Source: a virus
IMG/VR virus record: IMGVR_UViG_3300025646_000012
Coordinates: 56,964 to 120,963 of that record
Strand: one strand, 5' to 3'
DNA: 64,000 bases
In this document: positions 5,115-50,008 of the stretch, piece after piece
Layout: each line of letters starts with the position of its first letter
How positions within the stretch are numbered: the stretch's first letter is position 1
Position numbers and translations under genes: made by a program
The notes under the pieces: model-generated
Seen by the model: the letters and a program-made list of their open reading frames with translations, nothing else
Told to the model about the DNA's origin: nothing
The model's database searches: none

Positions 5115-5330
5115 ATGGCAACTAAAATTGCAAATCAAGAAAATCATTCACAAATTTACGATCTTTCCAACCGTGTAGCACGTAGTACAATTGCAGTAAT
5201 TGATACTCTTACCCAACGTGGTGCATTTAAGGGTGAGGAACTTTCTACCATCGGCGGATTGAGGGATCAAGCTGCTCATCTAATTCAACTTGCAGAAGCA
5301 TGGCAGGCTGAGAACGCATCAAATAGTTAA
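5115..5330 (+). CDS. Conserved small T4-like hypothetical protein
   Basis: IDTLTQRGAFKGEELSTIG motif; GGAG RBS. Confidence 0.7.
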   Translation: MATKIANQENHSQIYDLSNRVARSTIAVIDTLTQRGAFKGEELSTIGGLRDQAAHLIQLAEAWQAENASNS

Positions 5331-6154
5331 TGATAAACGAAATTACATTAAATATTACAGAATTATGTAATCTTAAATGTGGATTTTGTCCTAGATCTAC
5401 ATGGTATCCGAATCAAAATTTAAATATGAGTTCGGATACCATTCATGCAATTTGTAACCAAATTTTAAAATTACCTAATTTTAAAGATTTTATTACCAAT
5501 GGAAGTTTAAGAATTATAGGTAGAGGTGAACCTACATTACATCCTGAATTTGATAAGATAATTGAGATTATATCATCATATAATATAGATAATATTGTTC
5601 TTTATACTAATGGGATAAAACTAAAAAAAATTAAACACATTTCCCATAAAATTAAACAAATAAGATGGGCAGTATATTCTGATAATGATGCAGATTTTAT
5701 AGAAGCAATTTCAGAAATAAAAACATATAATTCTAAAAATAAACTTGTTTTTATGAAACCCGATAATGAAAAAGAAGGTGGCACTGTCCGTCACTATTTT
5801 ATAAATGGAACCTTATTTTTAAATAGTAATTATCCCTTTCTTGATAATAGAGCAGGATCTATAGAAAATCCCATTTATGAAAAACATTTTAATTATAAAC
5901 ACGCAACCTATCACGATGGTAAAAAATGTTATTATATAGATAATAAAATTTACATAGATTGGAATGGTAATTATAATTTATGTTGTAATGATTGGTCGGG
6001 CAGAGTATTAGGTAACATATTTAAAGAAGATATTATAAGTTATTATGAAAAAAATAATATCCTAAAAAAATATAAAGAAGGCATAAAAAATAAAAAGCCT
6101 TTAAATCCTTGTAAAAGTTGTTCAATACTAACGTGCATAAGAAATAATGTATGA
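5330..6154 (+). CDS. Radical SAM protein with SPASM/twitch-like C-terminus
   Basis: CNLKCGFC, GRGEPTLHP, C-terminal C..CC..CxxC. Confidence 0.85.
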   Translation: MINEITLNITELCNLKCGFCPRSTWYPNQNLNMSSDTIHAICNQILKLPNFKDFITNGSLRIIGRGEPTLHPEFDKIIEIISSYNIDNIVLYTNGIKLKKIKHISHKIKQIRWAVYSDNDADFIEAISEIKTYNSKNKLVFMKPDNEKEGGTVRHYFINGTLFLNSNYPFLDNRAGSIENPIYEKHFNYKHATYHDGKKCYYIDNKIYIDWNGNYNLCCNDWSGRVLGNIFKEDIISYYEKNNILKKYKEGIKNKKPLNPCKSCSILTCIRNNV

Positions 6155-9221: not shown

Positions 9222-10028
9222 ATGGATATAGTAGATCAAGTACTTTCCATACCAAAAAATATAGATTTTTATATCTACGCACCAGGTAGTGGTGGGGAAT
9301 TTTTTACATCTCTTATAGCTTTATCACACAAAAAAACAAGAGAAATATTAAAATTAAAATATTTTGATGGCTTAAAAAATGATGAAGGTTTAATGAGATA
9401 TAATAGACCGCAATATTTTACATATGATGAAAATTTTAAATTTCTAAATCTTAATATAAATAATGAGTTTTATAATGAAGTAGATCTACTTACAATGTTA
9501 GGACATCTCATGAGTCCATTAGATAGAATTAATTATTGTAAAATGTTATTATTTCAAGGTATTTTTCAATCTATGTTACCAAACAGAAATAAAGACGAGT
9601 TTAAGGAAAATATTAATATGTTTAAAGGTGTTAATATTATACTATCTACACACTGGATAGAACTTCCTTTATTAATTAAAACCAAAAATTTTGAATCTAA
9701 AAATTTTGGATTAAAATTATTTGAAAAAGAAAAATACTGGAATGTTATAAACTTAGACCCTCAAACTGAAAAAGGTAGAAATTTAGTTTTAAATTTTTGT
9801 AAAAAATATAAACTTATAACAAATGTTAAAAAAGTAGAGATGCAGTTTAATCACTCAGCATTTAGTAATATAAAATTAAAATTTCCTTTTATGGACTACA
9901 TGGCAACCGGAGATTTTAATTCAATAAAAAATTATATTACAAATCGTTATGGCCCTGATTTGGATTATGAATTTATTGATAAGGCACTTATTGATTATAA
10001 AAAACTAAGAATAGAGCCATATCTATGA
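9222..10028 (+). CDS. Hypothetical protein with sulfotransferase/P-loop-like N-terminus; paralog of 10585-11325
   Basis: IPKNIDFYIYAPGSGGEFF ... NRYGPDLDYEFID...IEPYL. Confidence 0.55.
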   Translation: MDIVDQVLSIPKNIDFYIYAPGSGGEFFTSLIALSHKKTREILKLKYFDGLKNDEGLMRYNRPQYFTYDENFKFLNLNINNEFYNEVDLLTMLGHLMSPLDRINYCKMLLFQGIFQSMLPNRNKDEFKENINMFKGVNIILSTHWIELPLLIKTKNFESKNFGLKLFEKEKYWNVINLDPQTEKGRNLVLNFCKKYKLITNVKKVEMQFNHSAFSNIKLKFPFMDYMATGDFNSIKNYITNRYGPDLDYEFIDKALIDYKKLRIEPYL

Positions 10029-10576
10029 TGTTTAATGAAAATGCCTTAAAATCAATAAGAAATCGAGAGATAGTTATAGGTTATACAACCCCAGACTGGA
10101 ACTATGATATGTATGATCTTATATCATATATGAATACTCAACCAGAGAAATTTAAAATATGGGAACCTAAAAATAGACGTTTAGGTTTAACCAAAATGGA
10201 AGCTCGGAAATCTACACCAGATTTTGCAAAAAATATTATAAAAGATTTAAAAAATACTTTTTATAAAAATCATATTTCATGTCATGCATATTGCGGTTTT
10301 ACTGAGTATAGTAAAAGTTTTGATATACACAAAGATCGAATGGATGTTCTATATCTTCAAGTTATTGGTAATATCGAATGGAGTATATGGAAATCCGATT
10401 CAAATAAAACAAATATAACACCAGATCAAGGTAGTTGTATTCTTAAGGAAAAATTTATGCCGGGTAAATGGATTTGGGTGCCAAGGGGTACATATCATTT
10501 AGTAGAACCTATAGACCCTCGAGTAGGATTTTCATTTGGGGTTGAAAATAATCCTGACCCATCAACATATATTTGA
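10025..10576 (+). CDS. JmjC/cupin-like Fe(II)-2OG oxygenase
   Basis: HKDRMD (HxD), LQVIG, VPRGTYH. Confidence 0.7.
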   Translation: MMFNENALKSIRNREIVIGYTTPDWNYDMYDLISYMNTQPEKFKIWEPKNRRLGLTKMEARKSTPDFAKNIIKDLKNTFYKNHISCHAYCGFTEYSKSFDIHKDRMDVLYLQVIGNIEWSIWKSDSNKTNITPDQGSCILKEKFMPGKWIWVPRGTYHLVEPIDPRVGFSFGVENNPDPSTYI

Positions 10577-11329: not shown

Positions 11330-11906
11330 TTTACATTGTAATCTTAACATAATCCATCAAGTTATATAGATGCATAATATAGATTTTAATATATTACATG
11401 AATTACTAATAAATAAAAGACCTAAATTATTAGGAAATATAACTTTGTCAAAAGACAACTCATTTGAAGATATGACAGAGGTAATGGATTTTTTAAATAA
11501 TCTGGATAATTCAAACGATAAAGTTTATAGATCTGAAATTGATATGATTGAGGTCCATTTCTTACAAAAACAAAATAATTGCCCTCAAATAATAAAAAAT
11601 ATTTCAAAAAATTTAAAGAAATTTGAACCTTTTAAAAGTCGTGAGCTGAATGTAGTAGGATTCATAGGATTTGATAATGCAATTGGTTATAATTGGCACT
11701 ACGACGATTATCATTTAGTGGCAATGAATATTATAGGTAATACTACTTGGTATTTTAAAGATGGTAGTACAATTGAAATGAATCCAGGAGATTTAATGTT
11801 CGTCCCAAGTCCGATAGAACATAAGGTGGTAGGTACAACAGAAAGATTTACAATTAGTTTTTGTTGTCTCATCAATAAAAATAGGTTTACATTGTAATCC
11901 TAACAT
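11330..11906 (+). repeat. 21-bp direct repeat (11330-11350 and 11886-11906, 1 mismatch) flanking the cupin gene
   Basis: tttacattgtaatcttaacat vs tttacattgtaatcctaacat. Confidence 0.8.
11370..11897 (+). CDS. JmjC/cupin-like oxygenase
   Basis: WHYDD, MNPGDLMFVPSPIEHKV, RFTISF. Confidence 0.75.
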   Translation: MHNIDFNILHELLINKRPKLLGNITLSKDNSFEDMTEVMDFLNNLDNSNDKVYRSEIDMIEVHFLQKQNNCPQIIKNISKNLKKFEPFKSRELNVVGFIGFDNAIGYNWHYDDYHLVAMNIIGNTTWYFKDGSTIEMNPGDLMFVPSPIEHKVVGTTERFTISFCCLINKNRFTL

Positions 11907-13468: not shown

Positions 13469-13491
13469 AGGCGGCTTCGGCCGCCTTTTTT
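13469..13491 (+). terminator. Rho-independent terminator with UUCG tetraloop
   Basis: aggcggc-ttcg-gccgcct-ttttt. Confidence 0.9.
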
Positions 13492-13492: not shown

Positions 13493-13521
13493 TTTACATT
13501 GACTCGTTTGTATTATATAAT
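13493..13521 (+). promoter_or_regulatory. Sigma70-like promoter for gp43
   Basis: TTTACA-N17-TATAAT. Confidence 0.75.
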
Positions 13522-13558: not shown

Positions 13559-16051
13559 ATGAAATTTTTTACATCTGTAAATCGTTACGGTAGTCAGATT
13601 TTGTATTGCGGATATAATGAAAGTGGATACCGCATTGAAAATAAAGTTCACTTTAAACCAACACTTTTTGTAAAAGCAAATAAACCAACCGAGTGGATTG
13701 CACTTGATAACACACCGGTTGAACCAATCCAATTTGAATCCATGCGTGAAGCAACCGATTTCATTAATCGGTACGAGGAAGTCGAAGGGTTCAAGGTATA
13801 TGGTAATACAAATTTTGTTCAACAATTTATTACAGAGCGCTTTCCCAATGAAATTCCTTGGGACATTAACGATATTAATATTGTCAATTTTGACATTGAG
13901 GTTGCATCAGATGATGGTTTTCCACGACCCGAGGAAGCTTCACAACCTATTATTTCAATTGCATTAAAATCCAGCAAATCATCCATTTATCACGTTTGGG
14001 GTCTCGGTGATTATGACTACACCAAATGTGAAGTTGAAATGTATGGTGATCTAATCCAGTATCATAAATGTGCTACTGAAGAAGAGTTGCTTGCCAGGTT
14101 TCACAAATATTGGTGCGATAATCGTCCTGATATTATTACCGGTTGGAATTGTAGATTTTTTGACGTTCCATATATTGTAAATCGTATTCGTAAAATTGGA
14201 TCGGAGGAAGCGGCCAAAAGACTCTCGCCTTGGAATAGAGTAAATGAAAACAATATTACCGTTCAGAATAAAACAAACTATGGGTATGATATTGTAGGCA
14301 TTCAACAGGCTGATTATCTAGAACTATTCAAAAAGTTTGGTTATTCGTATGGTACTCTTGAATCATATAAGCTCGACCACGTGGCTAATGTGGTGCTAGG
14401 CGACCGTAAGCTCTCGTACGAAGAGGTTGGTAACCTATACACACTGTATCAAACCAACCACCAAAAATTTATTGATTATAACATCAAGGACGTTCAACTT
14501 GTGAATCGTCTAGAGGAAAAGATGGGACTTATCAGCCTTGCTTTGACCATGGCATATAAGGCTGGTGTGAACCTGGAAACCACATTTGGTACAACTGCCA
14601 TTTGGGATTCAATTATTTACCGTGAGTTGAATAAAAAGAAAATTGCACTTCCGCCTAATATACACACATCAAAAAGTGATTACCCAGGTGGTTATGTAAA
14701 AGATCCGCAGGTGGGTAAACACGAGTGGGTTGTATCATTTGACCTTAATTCACTTTATCCAAATCTTATTGTTCAATACAACATGTCGCCTGAAACATTG
14801 GTGGGTCAAACAGAGCCAGATAATGTTGATTATTATCTCATGCTAAATAAAAAGGTTGAAAGTGAATTTGCTGTAGCCGCAAATGGATCTACATATCGTA
14901 AGGATTTCCAAGGTATTCTGCCCTTAATCATTGAATCGTATTATGCCGAGCGGACAACAATTAAAAATGCCATGTTGTCGGCAAAACAAGAGTATGAAAA
15001 AAATAAATCAGTTGAATTAGAACGTAAAATCAATCAACTTGAAAATCGCCAAATGGCAATTAAAATTCTTTTGAACTCTTTGTATGGTGCTCTTGGTAAT
15101 CAGCACTTCCGATACTTTGACATTCGTTTGGCAAAAGGTATTACACTTTCAGGTCAATTGGCAATCCGTTGGGCGGAAAGAGCAATCAATAATGAATTAA
15201 ATAAAATTCTTAAAACAAATGATTTTGATTATGTTATTGCCATTGATACGGATTCGCTATATCTTAATCTAGGTCCGTTAGTTGAAAAACTCAAACCCAA
15301 AAATCCAGTTGCTGCATTGGATAAGATTTGTTCCGAACATCTTGAAAAAGTTCTATTGGATGCCTATGCCGATTTGTTTGAAAAGACAAATGCATATAAA
15401 AACCGGATGGTTATGAAACGTGAATCCATTGCTGACCGTGGTATCTGGACTGCCAAAAAGAGATATATCCTTAATGTTCATAACAATGAGGGTGTGCAAT
15501 ATGCCGAACCTAAACTTAAGATTATGGGCATTGAGGCGATTAAATCATCCACACCACAAATCGTCCGAGACAAATTTAAAGATGCCTTTAAAATTATTGT
15601 AAATGGATCTGAGGCTGAAACACAAAAGTTTATCCTTGAATTTAAAAATGAATTTAAACAATATCCTCCACATATGGTTGCATTTCCCCGTGGTGTATCC
15701 AATGTGAGTGATTGGTTTGACCGAAAGACAATTTACAAAAAAGGCACACCAATTCACGTCCGGGGTAGTCTCCTATATAATAACGAGCTGAAACAAAGAG
15801 GATTGGATAAAAAAATTATGCCAATCCAAAACGGCGAAAAAATCAAATTCTGCTATCTTAAAATGCCCAACCCAATCAAGGAAAATATTATCGCCTTTCC
15901 TGATTATCTACCTGCGGAATTTAAGCTTGAAAAATATGTTGATTATGATACTCAGTTTGAAAAAACATTTATTGAACCACTGAAACTTATTCTGGATGCC
16001 ATCGGATGGGAAGTAGAACCATCGGCAAGCCTTGACTCATTCTTTGTATAG
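13559..16051 (+). CDS. gp43: Family B DNA polymerase gp43
   Basis: FDIEV exonuclease, SFDLNSLYP, KILLNSLYG, IDTDS, C-terminal clamp-binding SLDSFF. Confidence 0.97.
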   Translation: MKFFTSVNRYGSQILYCGYNESGYRIENKVHFKPTLFVKANKPTEWIALDNTPVEPIQFESMREATDFINRYEEVEGFKVYGNTNFVQQFITERFPNEIPWDINDINIVNFDIEVASDDGFPRPEEASQPIISIALKSSKSSIYHVWGLGDYDYTKCEVEMYGDLIQYHKCATEEELLARFHKYWCDNRPDIITGWNCRFFDVPYIVNRIRKIGSEEAAKRLSPWNRVNENNITVQNKTNYGYDIVGIQQADYLELFKKFGYSYGTLESYKLDHVANVVLGDRKLSYEEVGNLYTLYQTNHQKFIDYNIKDVQLVNRLEEKMGLISLALTMAYKAGVNLETTFGTTAIWDSIIYRELNKKKIALPPNIHTSKSDYPGGYVKDPQVGKHEWVVSFDLNSLYPNLIVQYNMSPETLVGQTEPDNVDYYLMLNKKVESEFAVAANGSTYRKDFQGILPLIIESYYAERTTIKNAMLSAKQEYEKNKSVELERKINQLENRQMAIKILLNSLYGALGNQHFRYFDIRLAKGITLSGQLAIRWAERAINNELNKILKTNDFDYVIAIDTDSLYLNLGPLVEKLKPKNPVAALDKICSEHLEKVLLDAYADLFEKTNAYKNRMVMKRESIADRGIWTAKKRYILNVHNNEGVQYAEPKLKIMGIEAIKSSTPQIVRDKFKDAFKIIVNGSEAETQKFILEFKNEFKQYPPHMVAFPRGVSNVSDWFDRKTIYKKGTPIHVRGSLLYNNELKQRGLDKKIMPIQNGEKIKFCYLKMPNPIKENIIAFPDYLPAEFKLEKYVDYDTQFEKTFIEPLKLILDAIGWEVEPSASLDSFFV

Positions 16052-16059: not shown

Positions 16060-16353
16060 ATGGAACTCGTTGAAAAAATTGCCCAATGGCACCGTGATCG
16101 TAATCTTATTGATGGCAGCACTGATAAGGACCAATATATGAAATTGATCCAAGAGGCAGGTGAACTATCTGATAGCATCTGCAAGGGTAAGGATATCCGT
16201 GACGATATTGGTGATATGATGGTTGTTCTTATTAATATTATGACCCGCAATAACCTATCCATGGAAGAATGTCTACAGGTTGCCTATGATGATATCAAGG
16301 ACCGCAAGGGTAGAATGATTGATGGAATTTTTGTAAAAGAAGCAGATTTGTAG
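16060..16353 (+). CDS. mazG: MazG-like nucleotide pyrophosphohydrolase
   Basis: KLIQEAGEL, DDIGD, AYDDIKDRKG. Confidence 0.85.
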   Translation: MELVEKIAQWHRDRNLIDGSTDKDQYMKLIQEAGELSDSICKGKDIRDDIGDMMVVLINIMTRNNLSMEECLQVAYDDIKDRKGRMIDGIFVKEADL

Positions 16354-16382
16354 TTTACATTTTTGCTAAATAATATTATAAT
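16354..16382 (+). promoter_or_regulatory. Sigma70-like promoter
   Basis: TTTACA-N17-TATAAT. Confidence 0.7.
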
Positions 16383-16406
16383 GGATCTATTCAATGTGAG
16401 GTTACC

Positions 16407-17351
16407 ATGGATACACAACCAAAATATCCAATTTATATCATTTCAAAAGGTCGGGCGGACTCTCGTCTGACCTCAAAAACACTTGAGGAAATCAATGTTC
16501 CATATCGGATTGTTATTGAGGAATCCGAATATGATGCATATGCAGCGGTCATTGATCCTAAGAAAATCCTAACACTTCCACCTGGGTTTAGAGAAAACCC
16601 ATTGTATGCACATCCAGATACCGAAGGACGTGTGGGTGGTTCTATCCCTGCACGAAACTTTGTTTGGGAACACTCAATCAAGGAAGGACATGCACGTCAC
16701 TGGATTATGGATGATAATATGAGATATTTCTATCGTTTGAATAGAAATAAAAAACGTCCAGTGACTACAGGTGCCGTCATTCGTGCCGTTGAGGACTTTA
16801 CTGATCGTTATACCAATGTAAAACAATCTGGTATGAACTATGCATTCTTCTGCCCTTCGGATATTAAACGACCACCATACTATCTAAATACTCGTATCTA
16901 CAGTTGTATTTTAAACTCTAATGATATTTCACATCGTTGGCGTGGTAAGTATAATGAGGATACCGATCTCAGTATTCGTATTCTAAAAGATGACTGGTGT
17001 ACATTCCTTTTCAACTTCGCACTTTGTGGTAAAGCCGCTACACACTCAATGAAAGGTGGTAATACTGAGGAAGTGTATAACGTTGGTAATAAGGATAACT
17101 TTGATAATCGTAGGGAATTTGCCGATTCACTTGCGGCACAACACCCAGATATTGTAAAGGTTACACAAAAGTGGGGACGTTGGCACCACCAGGTTGATTA
17201 TACTAAATTTATTCAAAAGCCCATCAAAAAAGAGGGTCTAAATATCCGTAAAGGTAATAATGAATATGGTATGAAACTTAATAAAATTACCGAGGAACAA
17301 TATTCTAAAATTTTCTTTAATAATGTAAGAGGAAAAAATGGGAGCGAATAA
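16407..17351 (+). CDS. GREB1-like / TET-associated-type glycosyltransferase (candidate DNA glycosyltransferase)
   Basis: YPIYIISKGR, ARNFVW, HWIMDDN, NEDTDLS, KGGNT motifs. Confidence 0.75.
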   Translation: MDTQPKYPIYIISKGRADSRLTSKTLEEINVPYRIVIEESEYDAYAAVIDPKKILTLPPGFRENPLYAHPDTEGRVGGSIPARNFVWEHSIKEGHARHWIMDDNMRYFYRLNRNKKRPVTTGAVIRAVEDFTDRYTNVKQSGMNYAFFCPSDIKRPPYYLNTRIYSCILNSNDISHRWRGKYNEDTDLSIRILKDDWCTFLFNFALCGKAATHSMKGGNTEEVYNVGNKDNFDNRREFADSLAAQHPDIVKVTQKWGRWHHQVDYTKFIQKPIKKEGLNIRKGNNEYGMKLNKITEEQYSKIFFNNVRGKNGSE

Positions 17352-17634
17352 CGTTGATAAAGTATCCCAAAATCTATTTTTGATTTTGGATGATGAAGAT
17401 AATACCACGCCGTATGATTGGGATGATATGCCTGAGTTTGTCCAAGAGGATAAAGAGGCATTTGAAGAGGTTACGGTTCGATTCCGCACTAAAGAGGATC
17501 TTGAGGCTTTTGCCAAATTGGTGGATCAACTTAATATTATACCACCTCGGAAACGTAAGAAATCAATTTGGTATCCAGCCATTGATCGTAATGCAAATAG
17601 TCTACTATTCTGGGTGGATGAAACCGAAGAATAA
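17338..17634 (+). CDS. Small acidic protein associated with the glycosyltransferase
   Basis: WDDMPEFVQED, VRFRTKED, KSIWYP; overlaps the upstream gene. Confidence 0.65.
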   Translation: MGANNVDKVSQNLFLILDDEDNTTPYDWDDMPEFVQEDKEAFEEVTVRFRTKEDLEAFAKLVDQLNIIPPRKRKKSIWYPAIDRNANSLLFWVDETEE

Positions 17635-17654
17635 TTCGGATTGAATTTTATATT

Positions 17655-18587
17655 ATGTATAGTATAACGATCTTTAAAAACATGTATGATAACAAGACGC
17701 ATCGTCGTCTTGATATTGATTCTTGGGATCAATTTACTAATTTTCTGTATAAACTATCACAGAGACCATTGAAAGGTAAAAAGGATGCGGAACTTATTTC
17801 TCCGGCTACTTATCAGATTGGAACCACACGGGCAAACAAAAATGTTATTGCTTGGGCAGGTTGGGCTGCTATTGATGTTGATAATCATGTTTTTCATGGG
17901 GATTTAAAAAATGAACTTTGTTCTAGGTTTGGTGATTGGGATTACATTTGTTATTCAACAGCTAGCAGTAATGAAGTACATCCAAAGTTCCGACTTGTTT
18001 TCCGACTTGAGAGAGATGTTAAGGGATCGGAGATTAAACATTTCTGGTATGCACTTAACACAGCACTTGATTCAATCGGAGATAGACAAACTAAGACCTT
18101 TTCAAGAATGTATTACATCCCTGCGAAATATGCTGATGCTTACAATTTTTTCTTCACTAATACTGGCCGGCCTATTGCTGTCGATGATCTTTTAGATAAG
18201 TATCCCTACGAAGATAAATCTACCAAAAACTTTCTTGATAGATTACCAGACGAATGGCGCAGACAGATTATTGAACATCGTAAATCGGCAATGGAAAATA
18301 CCAGTATCTATTGGAATGGTTATCAGGATTGCCCATTTATAAACAAAAAGATTATTAGAGACTGGAATTCAATTGCTACCATTGATGGCACCGGTCGTTA
18401 TGGTATGCTATATAAGATTATGGTGTCCATTGCAATGAATGCAATTAAAGAGAATTATCCTATTACATCCCAACAAATAGTGACCTTAATTCGGCAATTG
18501 GATATGGATACATCACGTAAATATGAAAACCGAGCCTTGGATGTTGAGGCTGAAAACGCATTGGAGTATGCATATAGAAATGTATAG
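17655..18587 (+). CDS. Primase-like (AEP/PrimPol-type) protein
   Basis: AAIDVD, YSTAS, PKFRLVF, SRMYYIP. Confidence 0.6.
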   Translation: MYSITIFKNMYDNKTHRRLDIDSWDQFTNFLYKLSQRPLKGKKDAELISPATYQIGTTRANKNVIAWAGWAAIDVDNHVFHGDLKNELCSRFGDWDYICYSTASSNEVHPKFRLVFRLERDVKGSEIKHFWYALNTALDSIGDRQTKTFSRMYYIPAKYADAYNFFFTNTGRPIAVDDLLDKYPYEDKSTKNFLDRLPDEWRRQIIEHRKSAMENTSIYWNGYQDCPFINKKIIRDWNSIATIDGTGRYGMLYKIMVSIAMNAIKENYPITSQQIVTLIRQLDMDTSRKYENRALDVEAENALEYAYRNV

Positions 18588-18601
18588 GATTAATATTAAA
18601 A

Positions 18602-19309
18602 ATGAATCGTTATATTTTTGATATAGATGGAACTTTAACACCATCAAGAGGTATCATAGATCCGGATTTTAAAAATTGGATGCTGGATTTTGCTAGTAAA
18701 AATCCAGTTTATTTAGTTACTGGTAGTGATAAAATAAAAACGCTTGAGCAAATTGGTACCTCTCTATATAATTTATGTCAGAAGGTTTATCAATGTTCCG
18801 GTAATGATGTTTGGGAAAAAGATAATAATCTTTATACAAACTCATTCAATATGGAAGAACATCTTTTAAAAGATTTAAAAAGAATTTTAAAGGATAGTAA
18901 ATTTTATAAGAAAACAGGTAATCATATAGAAATACGACCTGGACTTTGCAATTTTAGTATTCTCGGCCGAGGGGCAACACTGGAAGATAGAGCTATGTAC
19001 AAGCAGTGGGACGAGCATAAAAATGAAAGAGAAAAAATTGTATTTACATTAACTAAAATATATGATAAAATATATGATATTAAAGTTGCTGGGGAAACCG
19101 GAATTGATATTGTTATGAAAGGTTTTGATAAATCACAAATTATTCAAGATTTCAGCCCGCATGATAAAGTAATTTTTTTTGGTGATAAAATGAATCCAGA
19201 TGGCAACGATTACACCCTTGCTTTGGAAACTATAAATTCTGGTGGTGATATCCATCATATTAAAAATTGGCAAGAAACTTGGTCTATTCTAAGGAAATAT
19301 GTGCAATGA
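18602..19309 (+). CDS. HAD-IIB hydrolase / phosphomannomutase-like
   Basis: FDIDGTLTPSR, VTGSD, FFGDKMNPDGND. Confidence 0.85.
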   Translation: MNRYIFDIDGTLTPSRGIIDPDFKNWMLDFASKNPVYLVTGSDKIKTLEQIGTSLYNLCQKVYQCSGNDVWEKDNNLYTNSFNMEEHLLKDLKRILKDSKFYKKTGNHIEIRPGLCNFSILGRGATLEDRAMYKQWDEHKNEREKIVFTLTKIYDKIYDIKVAGETGIDIVMKGFDKSQIIQDFSPHDKVIFFGDKMNPDGNDYTLALETINSGGDIHHIKNWQETWSILRKYVQ

Positions 19310-19722
19310 AAATTGGTATTACATTTTCAACTTTTGATTTACTTCACGCTGGTCATGTGGCAATGCTTCGTGAAGCAAAAACCGTTTGTGATTATCTAAT
19401 TTGCGGTCTCCAAGTAGATCCATCACTTGATAGACCAGAGAAAAATAAACCCGTACAAACATTGGTTGAGCGCTATGTTCAACTATCAGGTGTAAAATAT
19501 GTCGATGAAATTATTTGCTACCAATCAGAAGCAGATGTTGTTGACATCTTGGAAATGTTTAATATTGACGTAAAAATTATGGGCTCTGAATATAGAGATA
19601 AGGATTTTACCGGCAAAGATGTTTGTAAACGTAAAGGTATTCAATTATATTTTAATAATAGAGCACACAGATTCAGTTCAAGTGATCTAAGGAAAAGAGT
19701 AGCGGAAGGGGAAAACAAATGA
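19306..19722 (+). CDS. tagD: Cytidylyltransferase, TagD-like
   Basis: FDLLHAGH (HxGH), ERY, FSSSDLR. Confidence 0.85.
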   Translation: MKIGITFSTFDLLHAGHVAMLREAKTVCDYLICGLQVDPSLDRPEKNKPVQTLVERYVQLSGVKYVDEIICYQSEADVVDILEMFNIDVKIMGSEYRDKDFTGKDVCKRKGIQLYFNNRAHRFSSSDLRKRVAEGENK

Positions 19723-19898
19723 CTGAAGGTCCTTTTAAAAACGCGTTTGACGCAGATATTAGAGGTGTTGTTCGTAGGGAAATTGTAACCTACAGAAAAC
19801 TACCAAATGGTTATATGAGTAAAGAAGTTACGGTTCGTGATTATTATGAAAGTGGTGATTATCACGATTCACAAACAACATTAATTCTAACAAAATAA
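19719..19898 (+). CDS. Small hypothetical protein, 59 aa (not in the ORF track)
   Basis: ATGA-coupled ORF MTEGPFKNAFDADIRGVVRREIVTY... Confidence 0.6.
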   Translation: MTEGPFKNAFDADIRGVVRREIVTYRKLPNGYMSKEVTVRDYYESGDYHDSQTTLILTK

Positions 19899-19901
19899 GT
19901 A

Positions 19902-19930
19902 TTTACAACAATGTATATTTGTGATAGAAT
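19902..19930 (+). promoter_or_regulatory. Sigma70-like promoter
   Basis: TTTACA-N17-TAGAAT with extended TG. Confidence 0.7.
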
Positions 19931-19956
19931 ACCTATATCACAACAAGGAATCCATT

Positions 19957-20916
19957 ATGTTTAAAATTGCAATTACCGGCGGTGCCGGGTTTATCGCTTT
20001 TCATTTGGCACAAAGTTTGCATGCAGATGGGCATGAAGTGATTGGTCTTGATAATTTTAATGATTATTATGATCCAGCACTTAAACGTGCTAGAGCCAGA
20101 AAACTTGCCGAAATTGGAATTGGTATTGCCAAATGTGATCTAAAAGATAAGAGTGATGTTCATGATTTTATGAAACTACATCATCCTGATCTTGTGATCC
20201 ATCTTGGTGCTTATGCTGGTGTTCGTCACTCACTAGAAAATCCACAAGTATACATTGATAATAATATTACCGGAACACAAAATCTTATTGATGCATGTAC
20301 CGCAAATAATGTTCAACACGTAGTTTATGCTTCAACTTCTTGTACCATGGCTGGTAATCAATTGCCTTGGAAAGAGGATGAAAAAACCGGCTACCAATTG
20401 AATCCGTATGGTTATTCCAAATCCACAAACGAATGTCAGTTTATGGCAAGTACTCTCAAAAATGCTATCGGACTTCGTTTCTTTACGGTTTACGGTCCTT
20501 GGGGTAGACCAGATATGGCTCTATTCACATTTACTAAAAACATTGTGGATGGTAAGCCAATCACTCTATATAATAACGGCGATATGATTCGTGATTTTAC
20601 ATATGTTGATGATATTGTCCAAGGTATTAAAATTGTCACATATCGTTGCCTTGACCAAAATAATGCTGGTGAAAAAGAAATTTATAATATTGGCTATGGT
20701 GATAAAGTTCCACTTATGGAATTTGTTGATCACATTGAAAAGAATCTAGGTCGGACTGCAATCAAGGATTATGCTCCTATGCATCCTGCTGATACACAAG
20801 CTACCTGGTCAGATACAACTAAACTACAGAAATTGGGTTATAAACCAACTACCGATATTGCAACTGGTGTTGAAAGGTTTGTTACCTGGTATAAATCTTA
20901 TTACGGAGTAAATTAA
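19957..20916 (+). CDS. NAD-dependent epimerase, UDP-glucuronate 4-epimerase type
   Basis: TGGAGFI, AGVRHSLENP, YGYSK, RFFTVYGPWGRPDMA, RDFTYVDD. Confidence 0.88.
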   Translation: MFKIAITGGAGFIAFHLAQSLHADGHEVIGLDNFNDYYDPALKRARARKLAEIGIGIAKCDLKDKSDVHDFMKLHHPDLVIHLGAYAGVRHSLENPQVYIDNNITGTQNLIDACTANNVQHVVYASTSCTMAGNQLPWKEDEKTGYQLNPYGYSKSTNECQFMASTLKNAIGLRFFTVYGPWGRPDMALFTFTKNIVDGKPITLYNNGDMIRDFTYVDDIVQGIKIVTYRCLDQNNAGEKEIYNIGYGDKVPLMEFVDHIEKNLGRTAIKDYAPMHPADTQATWSDTTKLQKLGYKPTTDIATGVERFVTWYKSYYGVN

Positions 20917-21749
20917 TGAAACTCGGAATTGTCGGTCACGGATTTGTTGGTAAAGCAGTTGATTATGGATTTTCACATCCATTGGTAGAAAAGTTTTATG
21001 TAGATCCTAATTATAATACCACCATTGATGATTTAATTAAATGGGAACCTAACGTTGCATTTATCTGTGCACCAACACCCATGCTTCCAAATGGTGCAGT
21101 TGATGCTACAATTGTACAAGATGCAGTATTGAAACTAGCACAGCATACTCAATGTTTGATTATTATCAAATCAACTGTAACTCCTAGTATTATCAAAAAT
21201 CTTATGGTCACGCTTAAATTTAAAGAACTTGAACATAGAGTAGTATATAATCCTGAGTTCCTTACAGAGAAAAATGCATTTGCAGAATTTGTACATCCTG
21301 ATGTTCACATTTTTGGTGGGACTCCAGAAGCAAATAATGCCGCTGTAACAATCTATAAACTCTTTTCCATGTGTAATATGGATAATATTTTCTTTACAGC
21401 CCCTGTTGAAGCATCATTTATCAAGTATGCAATCAATACCTACCTTGCAACCAAGGTAACGTTCTTCAATCAGCTCTACGATGCTGCAAGTGAACTAGGC
21501 GCAGGGTTCAACAATATCATTATGGGTATGGAACAAGATCCAAGGATCGGTAGTTCCCATATGAGAGTACCTGGTTTTGATGGTAAACGTGGATTTGGTG
21601 GTGCTTGTTTCCCAAAAGATACCGCTGCATTCTCAAAGGAATTTAAAGGGTTTACAATGCTGCAAGAAGTGATTAAAATTAATAATCAATATCGTCAGCA
21701 ATATGAACTTGATGATAGAGAAATTGCACAAAATATTAAATTTGGTTGA
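20916..21749 (+). CDS. ugd: UDP-glucose/GDP-mannose 6-dehydrogenase (short form)
   Basis: GHGFVG, IKSTV, NPEFL, GFGGACFPKD. Confidence 0.88.
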   Translation: MKLGIVGHGFVGKAVDYGFSHPLVEKFYVDPNYNTTIDDLIKWEPNVAFICAPTPMLPNGAVDATIVQDAVLKLAQHTQCLIIIKSTVTPSIIKNLMVTLKFKELEHRVVYNPEFLTEKNAFAEFVHPDVHIFGGTPEANNAAVTIYKLFSMCNMDNIFFTAPVEASFIKYAINTYLATKVTFFNQLYDAASELGAGFNNIIMGMEQDPRIGSSHMRVPGFDGKRGFGGACFPKDTAAFSKEFKGFTMLQEVIKINNQYRQQYELDDREIAQNIKFG

Positions 21750-21760: not shown

Positions 21761-22816
21761 ATGAGTATTATGGACAAACTAAAAAAGAATAGTAAGGTAA
21801 AAGAGACCTCTGTTCTATCTGAATCCAAATTCTTTAATGAAAAGGATATGGTTCAAACCGATGTGCCTATGATTAACGTGGCTCTATCTGGTTCCGTTGA
21901 TGGAGGTCTATCATCTGGGCTTACTGTTCTTGCAGGTCCATCGAAACACTTTAAAACATCATTTGCCCTTCTTATGGCTGCAGCATATTTGAATAAGTAT
22001 TCTGATGCTGTTATGCTTTTTTATGATTCAGAATTCGGTTCACCGCAATCTTATTTCCAACAATTTGGTATTGATACGGCACGTGTGCTTCATACACCGG
22101 TTACTAATGTTGAGGAACTAAAGTTTGATATTATCGGTCAATTGGAACAATTGGATCGTAAAGATAATGTAATTATTGTTATTGATTCTATTGGTAACTT
22201 GGCATCCAAAAAAGAACTTGAGGATGCAATCAATGAAAAATCGGTTGCGGATATGTCTCGTGCAAAGGCTCTGAAAGGTCTTTTCCGTATGTGCACACCA
22301 TATCTGACTATGAAAAACATTCCGCTTATTGCAATTAATCACACATATAAAGAAATTGGTTTGTTTCCTAAAGATATTGTATCTGGTGGTACTGGTATCT
22401 ATTATTCAGCGGATAATATTTGGATCCTTGGTCGTCAACAAGATAAACAGGGCACTGAAATCAAAGGTTATCACTTTGTGATTAACGTAGAGAAATCTCG
22501 TTATGTAAAAGAAAAATCCAAGATTCCTATCTCTGTTTCTTGGGAAGGTGGTGTTCAACGTTGGTCTGGATTGCTTGAGGTTGCAATTGCAGGACAATAT
22601 GTTGCCAAACCTTCCAATGGTTGGTATCAACACGTTGACCGAGAAACAGGTGAGCTTACTGGTCAAAAATACAGAGAAAAAGATACTCTTACCGAAGAGT
22701 TCTGGCAACCAATTATGACTGGAACAGATTTTAAGGAATTCCTAAAGAAACAATACTCAATTGGTTATCAATCTCTAATTGATATGGATTCCATTGTTGA
22801 GGAGATTGATGAATGA
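21761..22816 (+). CDS. uvsX: RecA-like recombinase UvsX
   Basis: AGPSKHFKT, YDSEFG, DSIGNLAS, GGTG. Confidence 0.96.
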   Translation: MSIMDKLKKNSKVKETSVLSESKFFNEKDMVQTDVPMINVALSGSVDGGLSSGLTVLAGPSKHFKTSFALLMAAAYLNKYSDAVMLFYDSEFGSPQSYFQQFGIDTARVLHTPVTNVEELKFDIIGQLEQLDRKDNVIIVIDSIGNLASKKELEDAINEKSVADMSRAKALKGLFRMCTPYLTMKNIPLIAINHTYKEIGLFPKDIVSGGTGIYYSADNIWILGRQQDKQGTEIKGYHFVINVEKSRYVKEKSKIPISVSWEGGVQRWSGLLEVAIAGQYVAKPSNGWYQHVDRETGELTGQKYREKDTLTEEFWQPIMTGTDFKEFLKKQYSIGYQSLIDMDSIVEEIDE

Positions 22817-23325: not shown

Positions 23326-24696
23326 ATGAATATTAATCTCGAGCAAACCATTCTAAGAAATCTACTGACCAACGAACCTTACATGCGTAAGGTTCTTCCT
23401 TTTGTGAAGCCTGATTATTTTGAGGGAGTGTATCGACTTCTCTATAAAGAGATCGGCAAATATGTTGCCAAATATAATAAATTGCCTCGGTTTGAGGAAT
23501 TTAAAATTGAATTAGATAATAGTGATAAGTTTAATGATGAACAATTTCGTCATGCCATGGAAATCATTCCTAATATCTTCACTAAAGAAGATGTAAATGA
23601 CCAGTGGCTTATAGATACTACAGAAAAGTGGTGTCAGGACCGTGCGGTCTATAATGCCATTATGGAATCAATTTCCATCATTGATGGTAAACACGAGGCC
23701 TTGAGTAAAAATGCGCTACCGGACATTCTTCAAAAGGCCCTGGCGGTATCGTTTGACACCAACATCGGTCACGACTATATTGAAAACGTTGAACAGCGAT
23801 ACGATTTCTACCATGAGCAAGAAGAAAGAATTCCTTTTGATCTTGACTATTTTAACAAGATTACGAAGGGAGGTCTACCAAACAAAACTCTTAATATTGC
23901 TCTTGCTGGTACTGGGGTTGGTAAATCTCTCTTTATGTGTCACGTTGCTGCTAATGCCCTAGTTCAAGGTAGAGCGGTACTTTATATTACATTGGAAATG
24001 TCCGAGGAAAGAATTGCCGAACGTATTGATGCCAATCTCTTGGATGTACCTATTGACCAATTGGAAACTCTATCCAAATCAATGCTTAAGGAAAGAGTCT
24101 CAAGTATTAGTCGTAAGGGTAATGGTAAACTTATCATTAAAGAATATCCTACTGGACAAGCAAATACCTCACACTTCCGTGCTCTACTAAATGAACTCAA
24201 ACTAAAAAAGAACTTTATCCCAAATATTATCTTTATTGACTATTTGAATATCTGTGCATCATCACGTATGAAAGGTATGGGAGGATCAATTAATTCCTAT
24301 ACATATATTAAAGCCATTGCCGAGGAAATGAGAGGACTTGCAGTTGAATTCAATGTACCGATTGTCTCTGCAACGCAAACGACGCGTTCTGGTTATGCTA
24401 ACTCGGATCCTGGGCTTGAGGATACGTCCGAGTCTTTTGGACTACCCGCAACGGCGGACCTAATGTTTGCTCTAGTTTCCAATGATGAACTACAGCAACA
24501 AGGTCAGATTATGGTCAAACAACTTAAAAATAGATATAACGATCCAAATATGAATAAGCGGTTCGTCATTGGTGTTGATAGAAGTAAAATGCGACTATGT
24601 GATGTAAATATGGGTGAACAAACATTAGTTGATGATACCCCAGCTTTTGACAAGGGTAATGTAAGTGAACGATTTAAGGATTTTAAAATTGAATGA
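23326..24696 (+). CDS. gp41: Replicative helicase gp41
   Basis: AGTGVGKS, ITLEMSEE, IDYLNI, SESFGLPATAD, KQLKNRY. Confidence 0.96.
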   Translation: MNINLEQTILRNLLTNEPYMRKVLPFVKPDYFEGVYRLLYKEIGKYVAKYNKLPRFEEFKIELDNSDKFNDEQFRHAMEIIPNIFTKEDVNDQWLIDTTEKWCQDRAVYNAIMESISIIDGKHEALSKNALPDILQKALAVSFDTNIGHDYIENVEQRYDFYHEQEERIPFDLDYFNKITKGGLPNKTLNIALAGTGVGKSLFMCHVAANALVQGRAVLYITLEMSEERIAERIDANLLDVPIDQLETLSKSMLKERVSSISRKGNGKLIIKEYPTGQANTSHFRALLNELKLKKNFIPNIIFIDYLNICASSRMKGMGGSINSYTYIKAIAEEMRGLAVEFNVPIVSATQTTRSGYANSDPGLEDTSESFGLPATADLMFALVSNDELQQQGQIMVKQLKNRYNDPNMNKRFVIGVDRSKMRLCDVNMGEQTLVDDTPAFDKGNVSERFKDFKIE

Positions 24697-25472
24697 AAGT
24701 ATTACTTTATCAATTTCATTTAAATCAAAGTAAATTGTCTTTTGCTACAAAAGACAAATATATTAATGATTATGGTGAATATTGGAAATTAAGTAGTAAT
24801 ACCTGTAAACTATATGCAGAAAAGTGGGGTTGGGATTATATTTTTGATAACCCAACGTCAGAAGAATGGGAACCTTTTTTTATACCAGAACCGCAATTTG
24901 AACAATTCCGTTGTATAAAATATCTAAAAGATTATGATGCGGTTTTATTTGTTGATAGTGACATTTTAATTAAACCAGATTCACCTAATGTAGTTGAGGA
25001 GTATAAAAAGAATAAAACGTCAATAGTAGTAAATACTTCAATTGGTAATAAACTTTTAGGTGAAAATGATTACTCAGTTATTGGTGTAAATACCGGCGTT
25101 GTAATATGGTATAAAGATTCAAATAATATAGCGAACCTTCCTTATATTAAAAATGACCAGTATTTTGATAATGGTGTATATTCACTTGGTTCTTTTTTAG
25201 AATCAAGAGGCAGCATAAAGTGGTGGAAAAATCTAGAAGATTTTGAGTCATTTATAGGTAAGTTTGAATCTGGGTTTCATAATGATGATAAGTTCTTAAC
25301 TTTTCTAATATCAATATATAATATTCCAGTAAGTCATTTACATTCCAAATATAATTATAGGTTTACAAATAGAACAAATAGTGATATACTATCTGATAAC
25401 ATACACTTTATACATTATATAGCAAATATGAAATCCTATATAAAACAGCATTACAATTTAATTATGGTGTAA
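24693..25472 (+). CDS. GT-A fold glycosyltransferase-like protein
   Basis: YAEKWGWDY, LFVDSD (DxD), NTGV, FIHY. Confidence 0.7.
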   Translation: MKVLLYQFHLNQSKLSFATKDKYINDYGEYWKLSSNTCKLYAEKWGWDYIFDNPTSEEWEPFFIPEPQFEQFRCIKYLKDYDAVLFVDSDILIKPDSPNVVEEYKKNKTSIVVNTSIGNKLLGENDYSVIGVNTGVVIWYKDSNNIANLPYIKNDQYFDNGVYSLGSFLESRGSIKWWKNLEDFESFIGKFESGFHNDDKFLTFLISIYNIPVSHLHSKYNYRFTNRTNSDILSDNIHFIHYIANMKSYIKQHYNLIMV

Positions 25473-26183
25473 TAATGTCTAAAGTATTAGTGTGTCAGTG
25501 TTATATTATACCAGACAATTATAATTCTAATCATTATGAATATTCTTTTGAAAGTGTAAAAAGATATTGTGATAAATTTGGTTTTGATTACCATAATGAA
25601 TTATATGAATCTAAAAATTATAAACCTTTTGCTTTAAATAACTTTTATTTTGAAAGATATAAATTTGTTGAAAAACTAGAAGAATATGATCACGTACTTT
25701 ATTTAGATAGTGATATTATAGTAAATAATTTTAATAAAAATATAATTGATGAATATAAGGATAAATTGGGGCTAGGTGTAAATTATTCAATAGTAAATGA
25801 TTATCTTGAAATAGATTCTTATAAATTTAATAGGCCACTAAATTCAGGTGTTCTTTTATTTAATAGGAAAACCAATAATCATATGTTCCCTTTGCATAAA
25901 TGGCCGAATACTTTTTATGATAAAACTCCTTGGTATAAATCATTAGATCAATATTCTCATCTTACTTATAGATGGCATAATAAATATCATCTTATTGATG
26001 ATGAACCTATGTTGGCAAGACTAATACCTATTATGCAAATACCAAGTTTTCATATAGATTATGAATGGAATACTTTTGCTACAAATAGAGATTTACATTC
26101 TTTAAAAAATTCATACTTTTTACATTACGGTATGAGTGAAGGTAAAAAACAACTTATTAAAAATCATTACAATTTAATTATGG
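25449..26183 (+). repeat. 19-bp exact direct repeat (25449-25467, 26165-26183) at the 3' ends of two tandem GT genes
   Basis: cattacaatttaattatgg twice; both proteins end HYNLIM. Confidence 0.85.
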
Positions 26184-26191
26184 AGCAATAA
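25475..26191 (+). CDS. GT-A fold glycosyltransferase-like protein; paralog of the upstream gene
   Basis: YCDKFGFDY, LYLDSD, NSGV, WN, FLHY. Confidence 0.7.
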   Translation: MSKVLVCQCYIIPDNYNSNHYEYSFESVKRYCDKFGFDYHNELYESKNYKPFALNNFYFERYKFVEKLEEYDHVLYLDSDIIVNNFNKNIIDEYKDKLGLGVNYSIVNDYLEIDSYKFNRPLNSGVLLFNRKTNNHMFPLHKWPNTFYDKTPWYKSLDQYSHLTYRWHNKYHLIDDEPMLARLIPIMQIPSFHIDYEWNTFATNRDLHSLKNSYFLHYGMSEGKKQLIKNHYNLIMEQ

Positions 26192-27998: not shown

Positions 27999-28331
27999 AT
28001 GTCGATGTATGATAAGCTTCGAAGAGATATAAGAATTAGTAAAGGGTACACTGATAGTAATCCTTGGGTACCAGATTGGGCATCAGGAGAAAGTTCAATG
28101 TTTACAATTGAAATGGAGGATGATGAATCCTTAATTACCATTTTGGATGATACAGGAGAATTGGATGACGTTTCAATTCTCCTGTATGATGATTATTGTC
28201 ATATTCGACAGTGGAATGAAAAAAAACAATTTTGGGAAATAGTTACTCTTACATCTACAATGTATCTTGAACTTATGAAAGCTTGGAATCTACCACAAGG
28301 AACTTATAAAATTGTTAAAACAGATGGATAG
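27999..28331 (+). CDS. Hypothetical protein (alternative start 28098)
   Basis: ORF in operon context. Confidence 0.6.
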   Translation: MSMYDKLRRDIRISKGYTDSNPWVPDWASGESSMFTIEMEDDESLITILDDTGELDDVSILLYDDYCHIRQWNEKKQFWEIVTLTSTMYLELMKAWNLPQGTYKIVKTDG

Positions 28332-28821
28332 CGATTTTTTCTATAAAGTAAAAATAAAAGAACATGAATTTATTAAGGAATGGTTTCTTAGTGAATATGA
28401 TGATTATATAAAACAACTTCCTATGAAACCTTCCAAAACTGATTATCAATTAAATATTAAAAGAAAATCGCCTTATTCAGATGAATGGAATCGTCTCATT
28501 CGACCTTACATAAAAGATTTTTGTAAAATTTTTGGAGTTGAAAATTATAAACTCCAATCATGGTTTGCACAGTATGATACAAATGTAGATCACCATTGGC
28601 ATATCCATTCTGGATCACATTTCGGTGTAGTGTATTATATGGAATTACCTTATAATGAAAATAGTACAGAATTTTGGAAAAAAAATTTTCCCGCGGATGA
28701 AGGTGAAATGGTTTTCTTTCCTTCATGGTGGATTCATAGATCCACCCCCAATCTATACGATAAAAGAAAAACAGTAATTGCAGGTAATTTAACTTTTAAA
28801 AATCATGCTTTTCTTCCATGA
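28324..28821 (+). CDS. Putative 2OG-Fe(II) oxygenase
   Basis: WHIH, VVYY, EGEMVFFPSWWIH, RKTVIAGN. Confidence 0.75.
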   Translation: MDSDFFYKVKIKEHEFIKEWFLSEYDDYIKQLPMKPSKTDYQLNIKRKSPYSDEWNRLIRPYIKDFCKIFGVENYKLQSWFAQYDTNVDHHWHIHSGSHFGVVYYMELPYNENSTEFWKKNFPADEGEMVFFPSWWIHRSTPNLYDKRKTVIAGNLTFKNHAFLP

Positions 28822-29578
28822 AATAAAACAAATAGAGATTAATCCGACAGAATTATGCAATCTTCAATGTGTATTTTGTCCTAGATCACTATCATATCCT
28901 AATTTAAATGAACATATGTCCCTTGATGTTGCAAAAGAAATCAGGGATCAAATGGTATCAGCTAAATTTTCTGGAGTATTATCAATAACTGGTAGAGGTG
29001 AACCTACATTACACCCACAGTTTGAAGAATATGTTTCCATATTTGTAGGTTACAATTGGAAATTAAAAATGCATACTAATGGTAAAAGATTTAAGCAATA
29101 TGAATCTTTTATTTTAAAGCATTTTCATGATATTCATTATAATTGCTATGATTGTAATCCACAGGATATTTATGATAAGTATGGATATTATAAAAATATA
29201 AAGATTATAGCTAAAGATTTAAATGAATGGTTTCCGAATGCTACAAATAGAGCAGGATCATTTCCTACCAATAAATATCCAGAAGATGAACGATGTGATG
29301 TAATATTCCATAAAATGTTTATTGACATTGATGGAACATATAGATTATGTTGTGAAGATTGGAAAGAAAAAATATCTCTTGGTAATATCTACGAACAAAG
29401 TATAGTAGATTATATTGAAGATAATGAACAATTACACAAATATCGTAAAAGATTAGTCAATGGTAACAGAGATTTATTACCTTGTATTTCTTGTAACTAT
29501 AATATAAGTTGTGACAAATATAATAGAAAACAAGATTTACAAAAATATTCAAAATTAGTAGAAATAAGGGACCTATAA
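28805..29578 (+). CDS. Radical SAM/SPASM-like protein; paralog of 5330-6154
   Basis: TELCNLQCVFCPR, GRGEPTLHP, NRAGS, LCC, CISC. Confidence 0.85.
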   Translation: MLFFHEIKQIEINPTELCNLQCVFCPRSLSYPNLNEHMSLDVAKEIRDQMVSAKFSGVLSITGRGEPTLHPQFEEYVSIFVGYNWKLKMHTNGKRFKQYESFILKHFHDIHYNCYDCNPQDIYDKYGYYKNIKIIAKDLNEWFPNATNRAGSFPTNKYPEDERCDVIFHKMFIDIDGTYRLCCEDWKEKISLGNIYEQSIVDYIEDNEQLHKYRKRLVNGNRDLLPCISCNYNISCDKYNRKQDLQKYSKLVEIRDL

Positions 29579-48504: not shown

Positions 48505-48511
48505 AATATAA

Positions 48512-49414: not shown

Positions 49415-49415
49415 A

Positions 49416-49991: not shown

Positions 49992-50008
49992 TTCATATCC
50001 TCAAATGT

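Follow-up and report, generated by a model that had tools for sequence, protein, structure and literature searches.

We asked what is modified by a glycosyltransferase that an uncultured freshwater T4-like myovirus encodes between its DNA polymerase and recombinase genes, next to genes for activated sugars. The locus lies at positions 16060-21749 of a 64,000-nucleotide stretch of viral DNA (here called the window), which is part of a viral contig of 120,963 bp (bases 56964-120963; IMG/VR record IMGVR_UViG_3300025646_000012; CheckV completeness 67%). A preliminary description had read it as a candidate DNA hypermodification locus, and the inventory that it gave was confirmed: gp43 and uvsX enclose all eight genes in their places on the + strand. 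They form a real, conserved and coherent cassette, which combines a split TAGT-family glycosyltransferase with a private supply of activated sugar. In the best-supported reading, to which we give an even chance of being correct, DNA is the acceptor of a self-supplied, probably uronic-acid glycosylation; this reading rests on the enzyme family, the genomic slot, the neighbouring genes and the precedent of phage SP-15. A literature search that covered papers without their supplements returned no description of the cassette.

The central gene (16407..17351, + strand) encodes a TAGT-family glycosyltransferase of the GT-A type, a catalytic subunit of 314 aa (PF20691 2.5e-38; phrog_842 1.4e-41). It scored 132.5 bits with PF20691 (cut-off 27.5), aligning over the full profile (positions 1-205 of 205), and the acidic DxD-type GT-A motif, D102-D103-N104, was invariant in 37 aligned sequences (one mis-framed reference row, L046, was dropped from the alignment). 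A relative of this TAGT is encoded in 414 of the 416 matched stretches of viral contigs. In cultured phages (Aeromonas phages Aeh1, 65 and phiAS5, Tenacibaculum phage PTm1, Vibrio phage Kuja, Pectobacterium phage POP12 and Paraglaciecola phage GD1) members of the same family occur as fused proteins, to which the source enzyme is 40-47% identical across the catalytic part. TAGT is described as a GT-A enzyme that puts a second glucose on glucosyl-hydroxymethylcytosine, in a family that includes the enzyme of phages T2 and T6, and solitary homologues are reported in 288 of 753 phage genomes (PMC13216743).

Directly 3′ of the TAGT gene, in 80 of 80 related loci, lies an open reading frame (ORF) for a small acidic protein of 98 aa (p98; 17338..17634, + strand), which has no family match. 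When a profile of 37 p98 ORFs was compared with the fused TAGTs by hhalign, it matched residues 24-97 of Aeh1p093, the TAGT homologue of Aeromonas phage Aeh1 (probability 97.5, E 5.6e-12), as well as GD1_80 of the Paraglaciecola phage (probability 95) and gp033 of Kuja (probability 89.7); the same profile against PDB sequences returned nothing. It corresponds to the N-terminal ∼100 residues of the fused proteins, which are 399-452 aa long. Thus, the small partner of the glycosyltransferase that had been noticed at the outset is present and, by hhalign, shares homology with the fused TAGTs in their N-terminal domain. From these alignments, TAGT is split in the source lineage: the gene for the accessory domain follows that for the catalytic piece instead of preceding it, in contrast to the N-terminal position of the p98-like domain in the Aeh1, Kuja and GD1 proteins.

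The two proteins are also predicted to bind each other. The modelled TAGT-p98 complex scored 0.87 compared with 0.01 for the best control, a mark that 116 of 157 solved complexes and 2 of 215 mismatched pairs also attained; at least 65% of the contacts agreed between model runs, and the predicted local distance difference test (pLDDT) of the partner was at least 67. As fused forms exist, the complex score may partly reflect domain packing. An invariant W-D-x-M-P-E-F-x-Q stretch of p98 falls in the predicted interface, and the isoelectric points (pI) of TAGT and p98 are 9.2 and 4.3, respectively (medians across homologues, 8.6 and 4.6).

The cassette genes are tightly packed on the + strand, where neighbours are separated or overlap by no more than 53 nt; this packing, and the recurrence of the same arrangement in related viral contigs, argue that the cassette is not a product of chance. 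On the left it is bordered by the family-B DNA polymerase gp43 (13559..16051, + strand; PF00136 2.6e-31; phrog_262 E=0) and on the right by the recombinase uvsX (21761..22816, + strand; PF21134 3e-13; phrog_97 9.2e-93). Upstream of gp43 there is a terminator-like hairpin (13469-13486), followed by a σ70-like site (13493-13521) that matches the consensus at 11/12 positions. The hairpin has a perfect 7-bp GC-rich stem with T-runs on both strands, and so resembles a bidirectional terminator. A second candidate promoter, TTTACA-17-TATAAT (16354..16382, + strand), again σ70-like at 11/12 positions, occupies the sole sizeable gap, just 5′ of the TAGT gene. These promoter-like sites are consensus matches only, and in total the region holds no more of them than shuffled sequences do. 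The T4-late TATAAATA is absent between 12 and 30 kb of the window.

The slot itself has a precedent in T-even phages. In T6 the order is gp43, imm.1, imm, gp42 (the deoxycytidine monophosphate (dCMP) hydroxymethylase), ggt (its TAGT), uvsX, gp40 and gp41, and the T4 beta-gt position is syntenic with that of the T6 TAGT (PMC13390438), so that the synteny with T4 gp42 and beta-gt claimed in the preliminary description holds. T6 ggt is likewise a PF20691 member in the gp43-uvsX slot of a T4-like genome. It differs from the enzyme studied here in being a single chain of 261 aa without a p98-like domain, and it stands beside the dCMP hydroxymethylase and relies on host UDP-glucose, whereas the source phage has no hydroxymethylase and carries donor genes of its own. 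Among the fused TAGTs, the Aeh1, Kuja and GD1 regions that we examined contain no sugar-nucleotide genes.

Which donor could the cassette supply? Most plausibly it provides UDP-glucuronic acid (UDP-GlcA) or UDP-galacturonic acid (UDP-GalA) and a second group activated as a nucleoside diphosphate (NDP). One of the donor genes encodes an extended short-chain dehydrogenase/reductase (SDR) resembling UDP-glucuronate 4-epimerases (19957..20916, + strand; listed ORF start, GTG 19921; PF01370 2.3e-52). Among solved structures it comes closest to 5u4q (2.5e-79), members of the 6zl6/6zld group (2.9e-43) and MoeE5 (7e-32), of which we take 5u4q and MoeE5 to be UDP-GlcA epimerases. It retains the catalytic YxxxK motif and, at an alignment position counted by hand, the equivalent of Arg185, and it reaches no NCBIfam equivalog cut-off. 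In the Bacillus cereus UDP-GlcA 4-epimerase BcUGAepi, the subject of a paper that cites 6ZLD, Arg185 holds the carboxylate of UDP-GalA (PMC12338863). The earlier call of a UDP-glucuronate-epimerase-like enzyme is therefore borne out by the nearest solved structures and by both sequence features.

The second group would come from two further enzymes. The first, a 235-aa protein of the HAD-IIB type (18602..19309, + strand; PF03332 6.2e-22; TIGR01484 5.3e-13), resembles eukaryotic phosphomannomutases (PMM), carries the N-terminal DIDGT motif of phosphomutases and phosphatases and could be a phosphosugar mutase or a phosphatase. The other is a nucleotidyltransferase with a HAGH motif (19306..19722, + strand; listed ORF start, TTG 19267; PF01467 1.6e-12), which matches PDB 3elb (4.1e-22) and TagD (2e-14). 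Against NCBIfam it scored 76 bits with rfaE_dom_II (2.1e-21; cut-off 181.5) and 68 bits with g3p_cytidyltrns (9.8e-19; cut-off 165.4), and by sequence it falls between HldC (RfaE domain II), TagD and ethanolamine-phosphate cytidylyltransferase (ECT). The true starts of the nucleotidyltransferase and the SDR are likely ATG 19306 and ATG 19957, which match the lengths of relatives and abut upstream stop codons. Between the two genes lies a 59-aa ORF (19719-19898, + strand) for which tblastn returned nothing from the 80 related loci.

A phage with a uronic acid on its DNA is known: SP-15 DNA carries glucuronolactone-1-phosphate and glucose (PMC5977210). Genes 146-155 of this Bacillus phage resemble the cassette in that a Ugd, a uridylyltransferase, glycosyltransferases and a phosphomannomutase are found among replication genes. 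They differ in that the SP-15 Ugd, 29% identical to the Ugd-like protein of the cassette, is full length (436 aa), its transferases carry group 1 or CDP-glycerol glycerophosphotransferase annotations and not TAGT, and its acceptor, dihydroxypentyluracil (DHPU), derives from a ThyA-like hydroxymethyl-dUMP (hmdUMP) synthase, for which the source contig has no gene. The clusters for arabinosyl-5-hydroxycytosine in RB69 and DLP3 likewise place an isomerase, a HAD phosphatase and a nucleotidyltransferase beside DNA glycosyltransferases (PMC13326640). There, however, the transferases are GT-B enzymes and a ThyA homologue serves as the 5-hydroxy-dCMP (5hodCMP) synthase (PMC13326640); neither was found with the source cassette.

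Taken together, glycosylation of DNA could proceed as follows. The cassette genes would be transcribed along with the replication genes. The PMM-like protein and the nucleotidyltransferase would turn a sugar phosphate or alcohol phosphate into an NDP derivative, and a short Ugd-like dehydrogenase would act with the SDR to yield UDP-GlcA and UDP-GalA. After replication, TAGT would place a hexuronic-acid-type sugar (or another NDP-activated group) on the phage DNA, as its T2 and T6 relatives do with glucose, and the sugar would change how host nucleases recognise the DNA. A MazG-like protein may tune the nucleotide pools.

To weigh this reading, we compared the source genome with its relatives. 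By its gene content it is a T4-like myovirus: Pfam and PHROG scans of the window identified gp23, gp20, tail, baseplate and terminase genes, uvsW/uvsY, a gp46-like SMC ATPase, gp45, gp44/62, regA, gp43, uvsX and gp41, and genes for ThyX, Hsp20 and PstS. By major capsid protein, the closest cultured phages are phage C48C1 (69%) and Methylophilales phage Melnitz (62%), followed by Synechococcus phage S-SKS1 (62%) and Pelagibacter phage HTVC008M (60%), and sequence words of the cassette region recur in assembled contigs of freshwater and lagoon metagenomes from several studies, with no RNA data set among the matches listed. Gene content was compared between three TAGT-positive genomes and one TAGT-negative genome, C48C1. 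The positive ones are the 67% complete source contig (G000) and two relatives, G001, rated 86% complete, and G002, which has 164,769 bp and is rated 100% complete (CheckV).

Several observations weigh against DNA as the acceptor, first of all the lack of an enzyme that would prepare the base. The preliminary description had recognised no hydroxymethylase, TET/JBP enzyme or DNA methyltransferase in the window, and the same is true of the whole contig. A search of the source contig, G001 and G002 for TET/JBP and thymidylate-synthase-like hydroxymethylases gave no match at E≤1 to PF12851 (Tet_JBP) or to PF00303 (ThyA, dCMP hydroxymethylase and 5hodCMP synthase), so that the acceptor base is as unexplained in the genome rated complete as it had been in the window. 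Thymidylate is made in the source phage by ThyX. No oxygenase or other acceptor-forming gene follows the presence of TAGT across the four genomes, and PHROG and Pfam scans of the neighbours of no known family and of 150 of the 221 G002 ORFs (the rest being mostly structural or short) revealed no recognisable base-modifying enzyme. With no known route to 5-hydroxymethylcytosine (5hmC), 5-hydroxycytosine (5hoC) or 5-hydroxymethyluracil (5hmU), the acceptor would have to be either new or limited and site-specific.

The oxygenases of the window were considered as partners of TAGT and rejected, because G001 and G002 share none of them with the source genome; they are two JmjC-like proteins (10025-10576 and 11370-11897) and two 2-oxoglutarate-Fe(II) (2OG-Fe(II)) oxygenases (28312-28821 and 51888-52490). 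The JmjC-like cupins form a pair on the + strand between regA and Hsp20, which is shared only with the TAGT-negative C48C1. G002 encodes a protein with a MazZ-like dATP/dGTP diphosphohydrolase N-terminal domain (locus L094, 14283-14726), a nucleoside 2-deoxyribosyltransferase-like protein (L096, 17017-17613) and a divergent ThyX-like protein of 301 aa (L096, 6792-7697), which by their sequences are possible nucleotide-pool or base-chemistry genes.

Restriction sites point the same way as the missing enzyme. Palindromes of 6 bp with an observed/expected ratio below 0.5 numbered 12 of 54 in G001, 7 of 64 in G002 and 2 of 56 in the source contig; TCTAGA occurs once in G001 compared with 28.7 expected occurrences, and GATATC is low in all three TAGT-bearing genomes. 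The protective DNA modification that had been proposed is therefore weakened in its blanket form, since the TAGT-bearing relatives still avoid palindromic sites. As fully protected DNA should escape such selection, the modification, if there is any, is likely partial or site-specific.

The dehydrogenase of the donor supply is a weak point as well. The last gene of the cassette (20916..21749, + strand) encodes a Ugd-like dehydrogenase of 277 aa with two domains only, PF03721 and PF00984. The UDP-binding C-terminal domain PF03720 is absent both from this protein and from the entire 121-kb contig, and its TIGR03026 score of 152.1 bits lies below the NCBIfam cut-off of 189.8. The protein has the NAD-binding GHGFVG and the catalytic GGACFPKD motifs, with C231 and K234 invariant in 20 sequences, and its AlphaFold2 (AF2) model (pLDDT 92.7) superposes on the NAD-binding and central domains of UDP-glucose dehydrogenases (UGDHs), of whose structures it covers about half in Foldseek (TM-score by query, TMq, 0.77-0.81; by target, TMt, ∼0.5). 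Among 53 related Ugd-like ORFs, 37 have 263-294 aa and 16 have 392-403 aa; PF03720 was found in both of the two long forms scanned. A large protein database holds 5,916 Ugd-like relatives at E≤1e-10, and the best 120 of them all have 273-374 aa and two domains only. Judged by these sequences, the short Ugd family without a UDP-binding domain is large, abundant in metagenomes and no local accident. Of the earlier proposal that Ugd and the epimerase yield UDP-GlcA and UDP-GalA, the epimerase part stands and the dehydrogenase part is weakened: with PF03720 missing, that the short enzyme makes UDP-GlcA is something we infer.

Finally, the transferase is only a remote relative of the characterised T6 enzyme. 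A comparison of the TAGT alignment with T6 ggt by hhalign gave a probability of 17%, and we therefore make no claim of orthology from the sequences. The base-J enzyme JGT is a DNA-acting member of the family, and GREB1, which belongs to the TAGT superfamily, has been reported as a protein glycosyltransferase. Phages Aeh1 and 65, both with a fused TAGT, lack genes 42 and 56, and Petrov et al. (PMC2993671) considered phages without this gene network to be probably unmodified.

Could the acceptor then be something other than DNA? The main rival holds that the sugar goes to host envelope glycans (lipopolysaccharide (LPS) or capsule, blocking superinfection) or to a phage or host protein, which we consider unlikely. 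In its favour are the reported protein glycosylation by GREB1, the absent acceptor-forming enzyme, the continued avoidance of restriction sites and the case of C48C1, which retains the epimerase and a Ugd of 320 aa without any TAGT. Pelagimyophages carry genes of the same kinds (rfaE, UDP-glucose 6-dehydrogenase and glycosyltransferases); in their passages on these genes, Zaragoza-Solas et al. 2020 (PMC7029224) count rfaE and UDP-glucose 6-dehydrogenase among the LPS O-chain genes and do not mention TAGT. Ribosomal protein S21, a core gene of pelagimyophages (PMC7029224), is found in cassette relatives too, just 5′ of uvsX (L061, 18422-18685; L078, 17766-18023). Moreover, the window contains a second, separate glyco-cluster on the − strand (47848-57723), as is typical of aquatic T4-like phages in their hypervariable ‘LPS-like’ regions. 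It comprises two GT25 glycosyltransferases, a CmcI-like and another methyltransferase, UDP-galactopyranose mutase, a 2OG-Fe(II) oxygenase, a GT8 glycosyltransferase, a radical SAM protein and a carbamoyltransferase.

Against a non-DNA acceptor stands the position of the cassette, which lies in the replication module at the slot of T6 ggt and outside the hypervariable region. In C48C1 the place of TAGT and its partner is taken exactly by a Dam-family adenine methyltransferase (L085, 8101-8985), followed by the AEP primase, the epimerase and Ugd, so that the same slot is filled there by an enzyme that modifies DNA. Nucleotide-metabolism genes neighbour the cassette in relatives, the catalytic piece is basic, and the characterised T2/T6 member of the family acts on DNA (PMC13216743).

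A further alternative accepts DNA as the acceptor and questions the donor. TAGT would use a host donor such as UDP-glucose, and the sugar genes would be independent of it, sharing a plastic hotspot and serving other transferases or draining host pools; we think this quite improbable. T-even glucosyltransferases do take host UDP-glucose (PMC2993671), the epimerase and Ugd persist in C48C1 without TAGT, and the content of the gp43-to-uvsX interval is highly variable, with lengths from 4.2 to 10.1 kb among relatives. Extra genes there include a second TAGT paralogue, GT-B transferases, an FkbM methyltransferase, small cupins, PRA-PH-type pyrophosphatases, a dCMP deaminase and a 2OG-Fe(II) oxygenase. 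The sugar genes nevertheless accompany TAGT. Among the 80 related loci that were kept, 32 span the complete interval; as all were chosen for the presence of TAGT, gene counts among them are conditional on it. TAGT, its partner and an SDR were present in all 32 and the Ugd-like gene in 31; the nucleotidyltransferase (22), the MazG-like gene (20) and the PMM-like gene (11) were less constant. In G002, uvsX follows gp43 directly, and a block of TAGT, partner, short Ugd, nucleotidyltransferase and SDR adjoins nrdAB instead; the joint relocation means that the block moves as a unit. In the four-genome comparison, the presence pattern of TAGT was matched only by p98, the nucleotidyltransferase and two unrelated ORFs. 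Within the cassette, genes that overlap or abut suggest coupled expression. A decaying or non-functional cassette was rejected because the cassette is conserved.

Glycosylation of DNA with a self-supplied sugar can also be put in a stronger form, to which we give only a slim chance. In it, the two-subunit TAGT would put GalA or GlcA directly on DNA without a base-hydroxylating enzyme, on a canonical base at specific sites or on a novel one rather than on 5hmC, 5hoC or 5hmU, with a donor made through a new short UDP-glucose dehydrogenase. This would be new chemistry in a widespread freshwater and marine T4-like lineage.

Two genes of the interval remain to be described. The 310-aa protein p310 (17655..18587, + strand), with a catalytic domain and a helix bundle, is an AEP-type primase by structure match. 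It has no Pfam match, and its match to phrog_9765 ‘DNA primase’ (8.9e-48) concerns the N-terminus. The top Foldseek matches of its AF2 model (pLDDT 88.1) are the RSF1010 RepB′ primase 3h20 (6.9e-5) and the AEP domain of cyanophage S-2L PrimPol 6zp9 (1.3e-3, TMt 0.51); the D-x-D pair D74 and D76 is invariant among aligned homologues, and its alignment profile against PDB sequences returned nothing. The gene is present in 31 of the 32 complete intervals as well as in the TAGT-less isolate C48C1. From the modelled fold and this distribution, we read p310 as a primase of replication that happens to lie in the slot and has no part in the sugar chemistry, and we no longer count it with the modification locus, as the preliminary description did. 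A test with PF13155 for a missing T4-type gp61 primase was uninformative, as Aeh1, which presumably encodes a gp61-type primase, had no match either.

The first gene of the interval (16060..16353, + strand) encodes a MazG-like all-alpha NTP pyrophosphohydrolase of 97 aa and pI 4.6 (phrog_715 1.2e-36). Its score with Pfam MazG, 20.3 bits, is under the cut-off of 22, and its matches in PDB were weak only; in other relatives a PRA-PH-type protein stands at the same place. The 3′ end of the gene (16276-16352) is oddly conserved, with stretches of 60-76 nt that share 80-87% identity with genes annotated as ‘DNA-binding protein’ or MazG in very distant phages of Streptococcus, Brochothrix and Alteromonas.

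Elsewhere in the window, two GT8-like or DUF273-like glycosyltransferases follow right after gp41 (24693-26191, + strand) and are absent from every related locus and compared genome. Three radical SAM/SPASM proteins are encoded (5330-6154 and 28805-29578 on the + strand, 54541-55581 on the − strand). The gene of one separates the sliding-clamp gene gp45 from that of the clamp loader gp44, and none of the three genomes used for comparison has a counterpart of the first two. An unusual auxiliary gene (61852-63288, − strand), unmatched in G001, G002 and C48C1, encodes a 478-aa membrane subunit of a TctA-family tripartite tricarboxylate transporter (PF01970 2.6e-97).

Whatever the acceptor may be, the alignments indicate that TAGT can be split, with a small subunit that corresponds to the N-terminal domain of the fused forms, and that a short Ugd family is abundant in metagenomes. 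If DNA is indeed modified, hundreds of uncultured aquatic T4-like phages (414 related contigs) would carry an acidic sugar on their DNA, made without any of the known acceptor pathways. This would bear on the escape of phages from restriction and CRISPR, on the behaviour of such DNA in sequencing libraries and on the annotation of the ‘LPS-like’ sugar genes of the pelagimyophage type.

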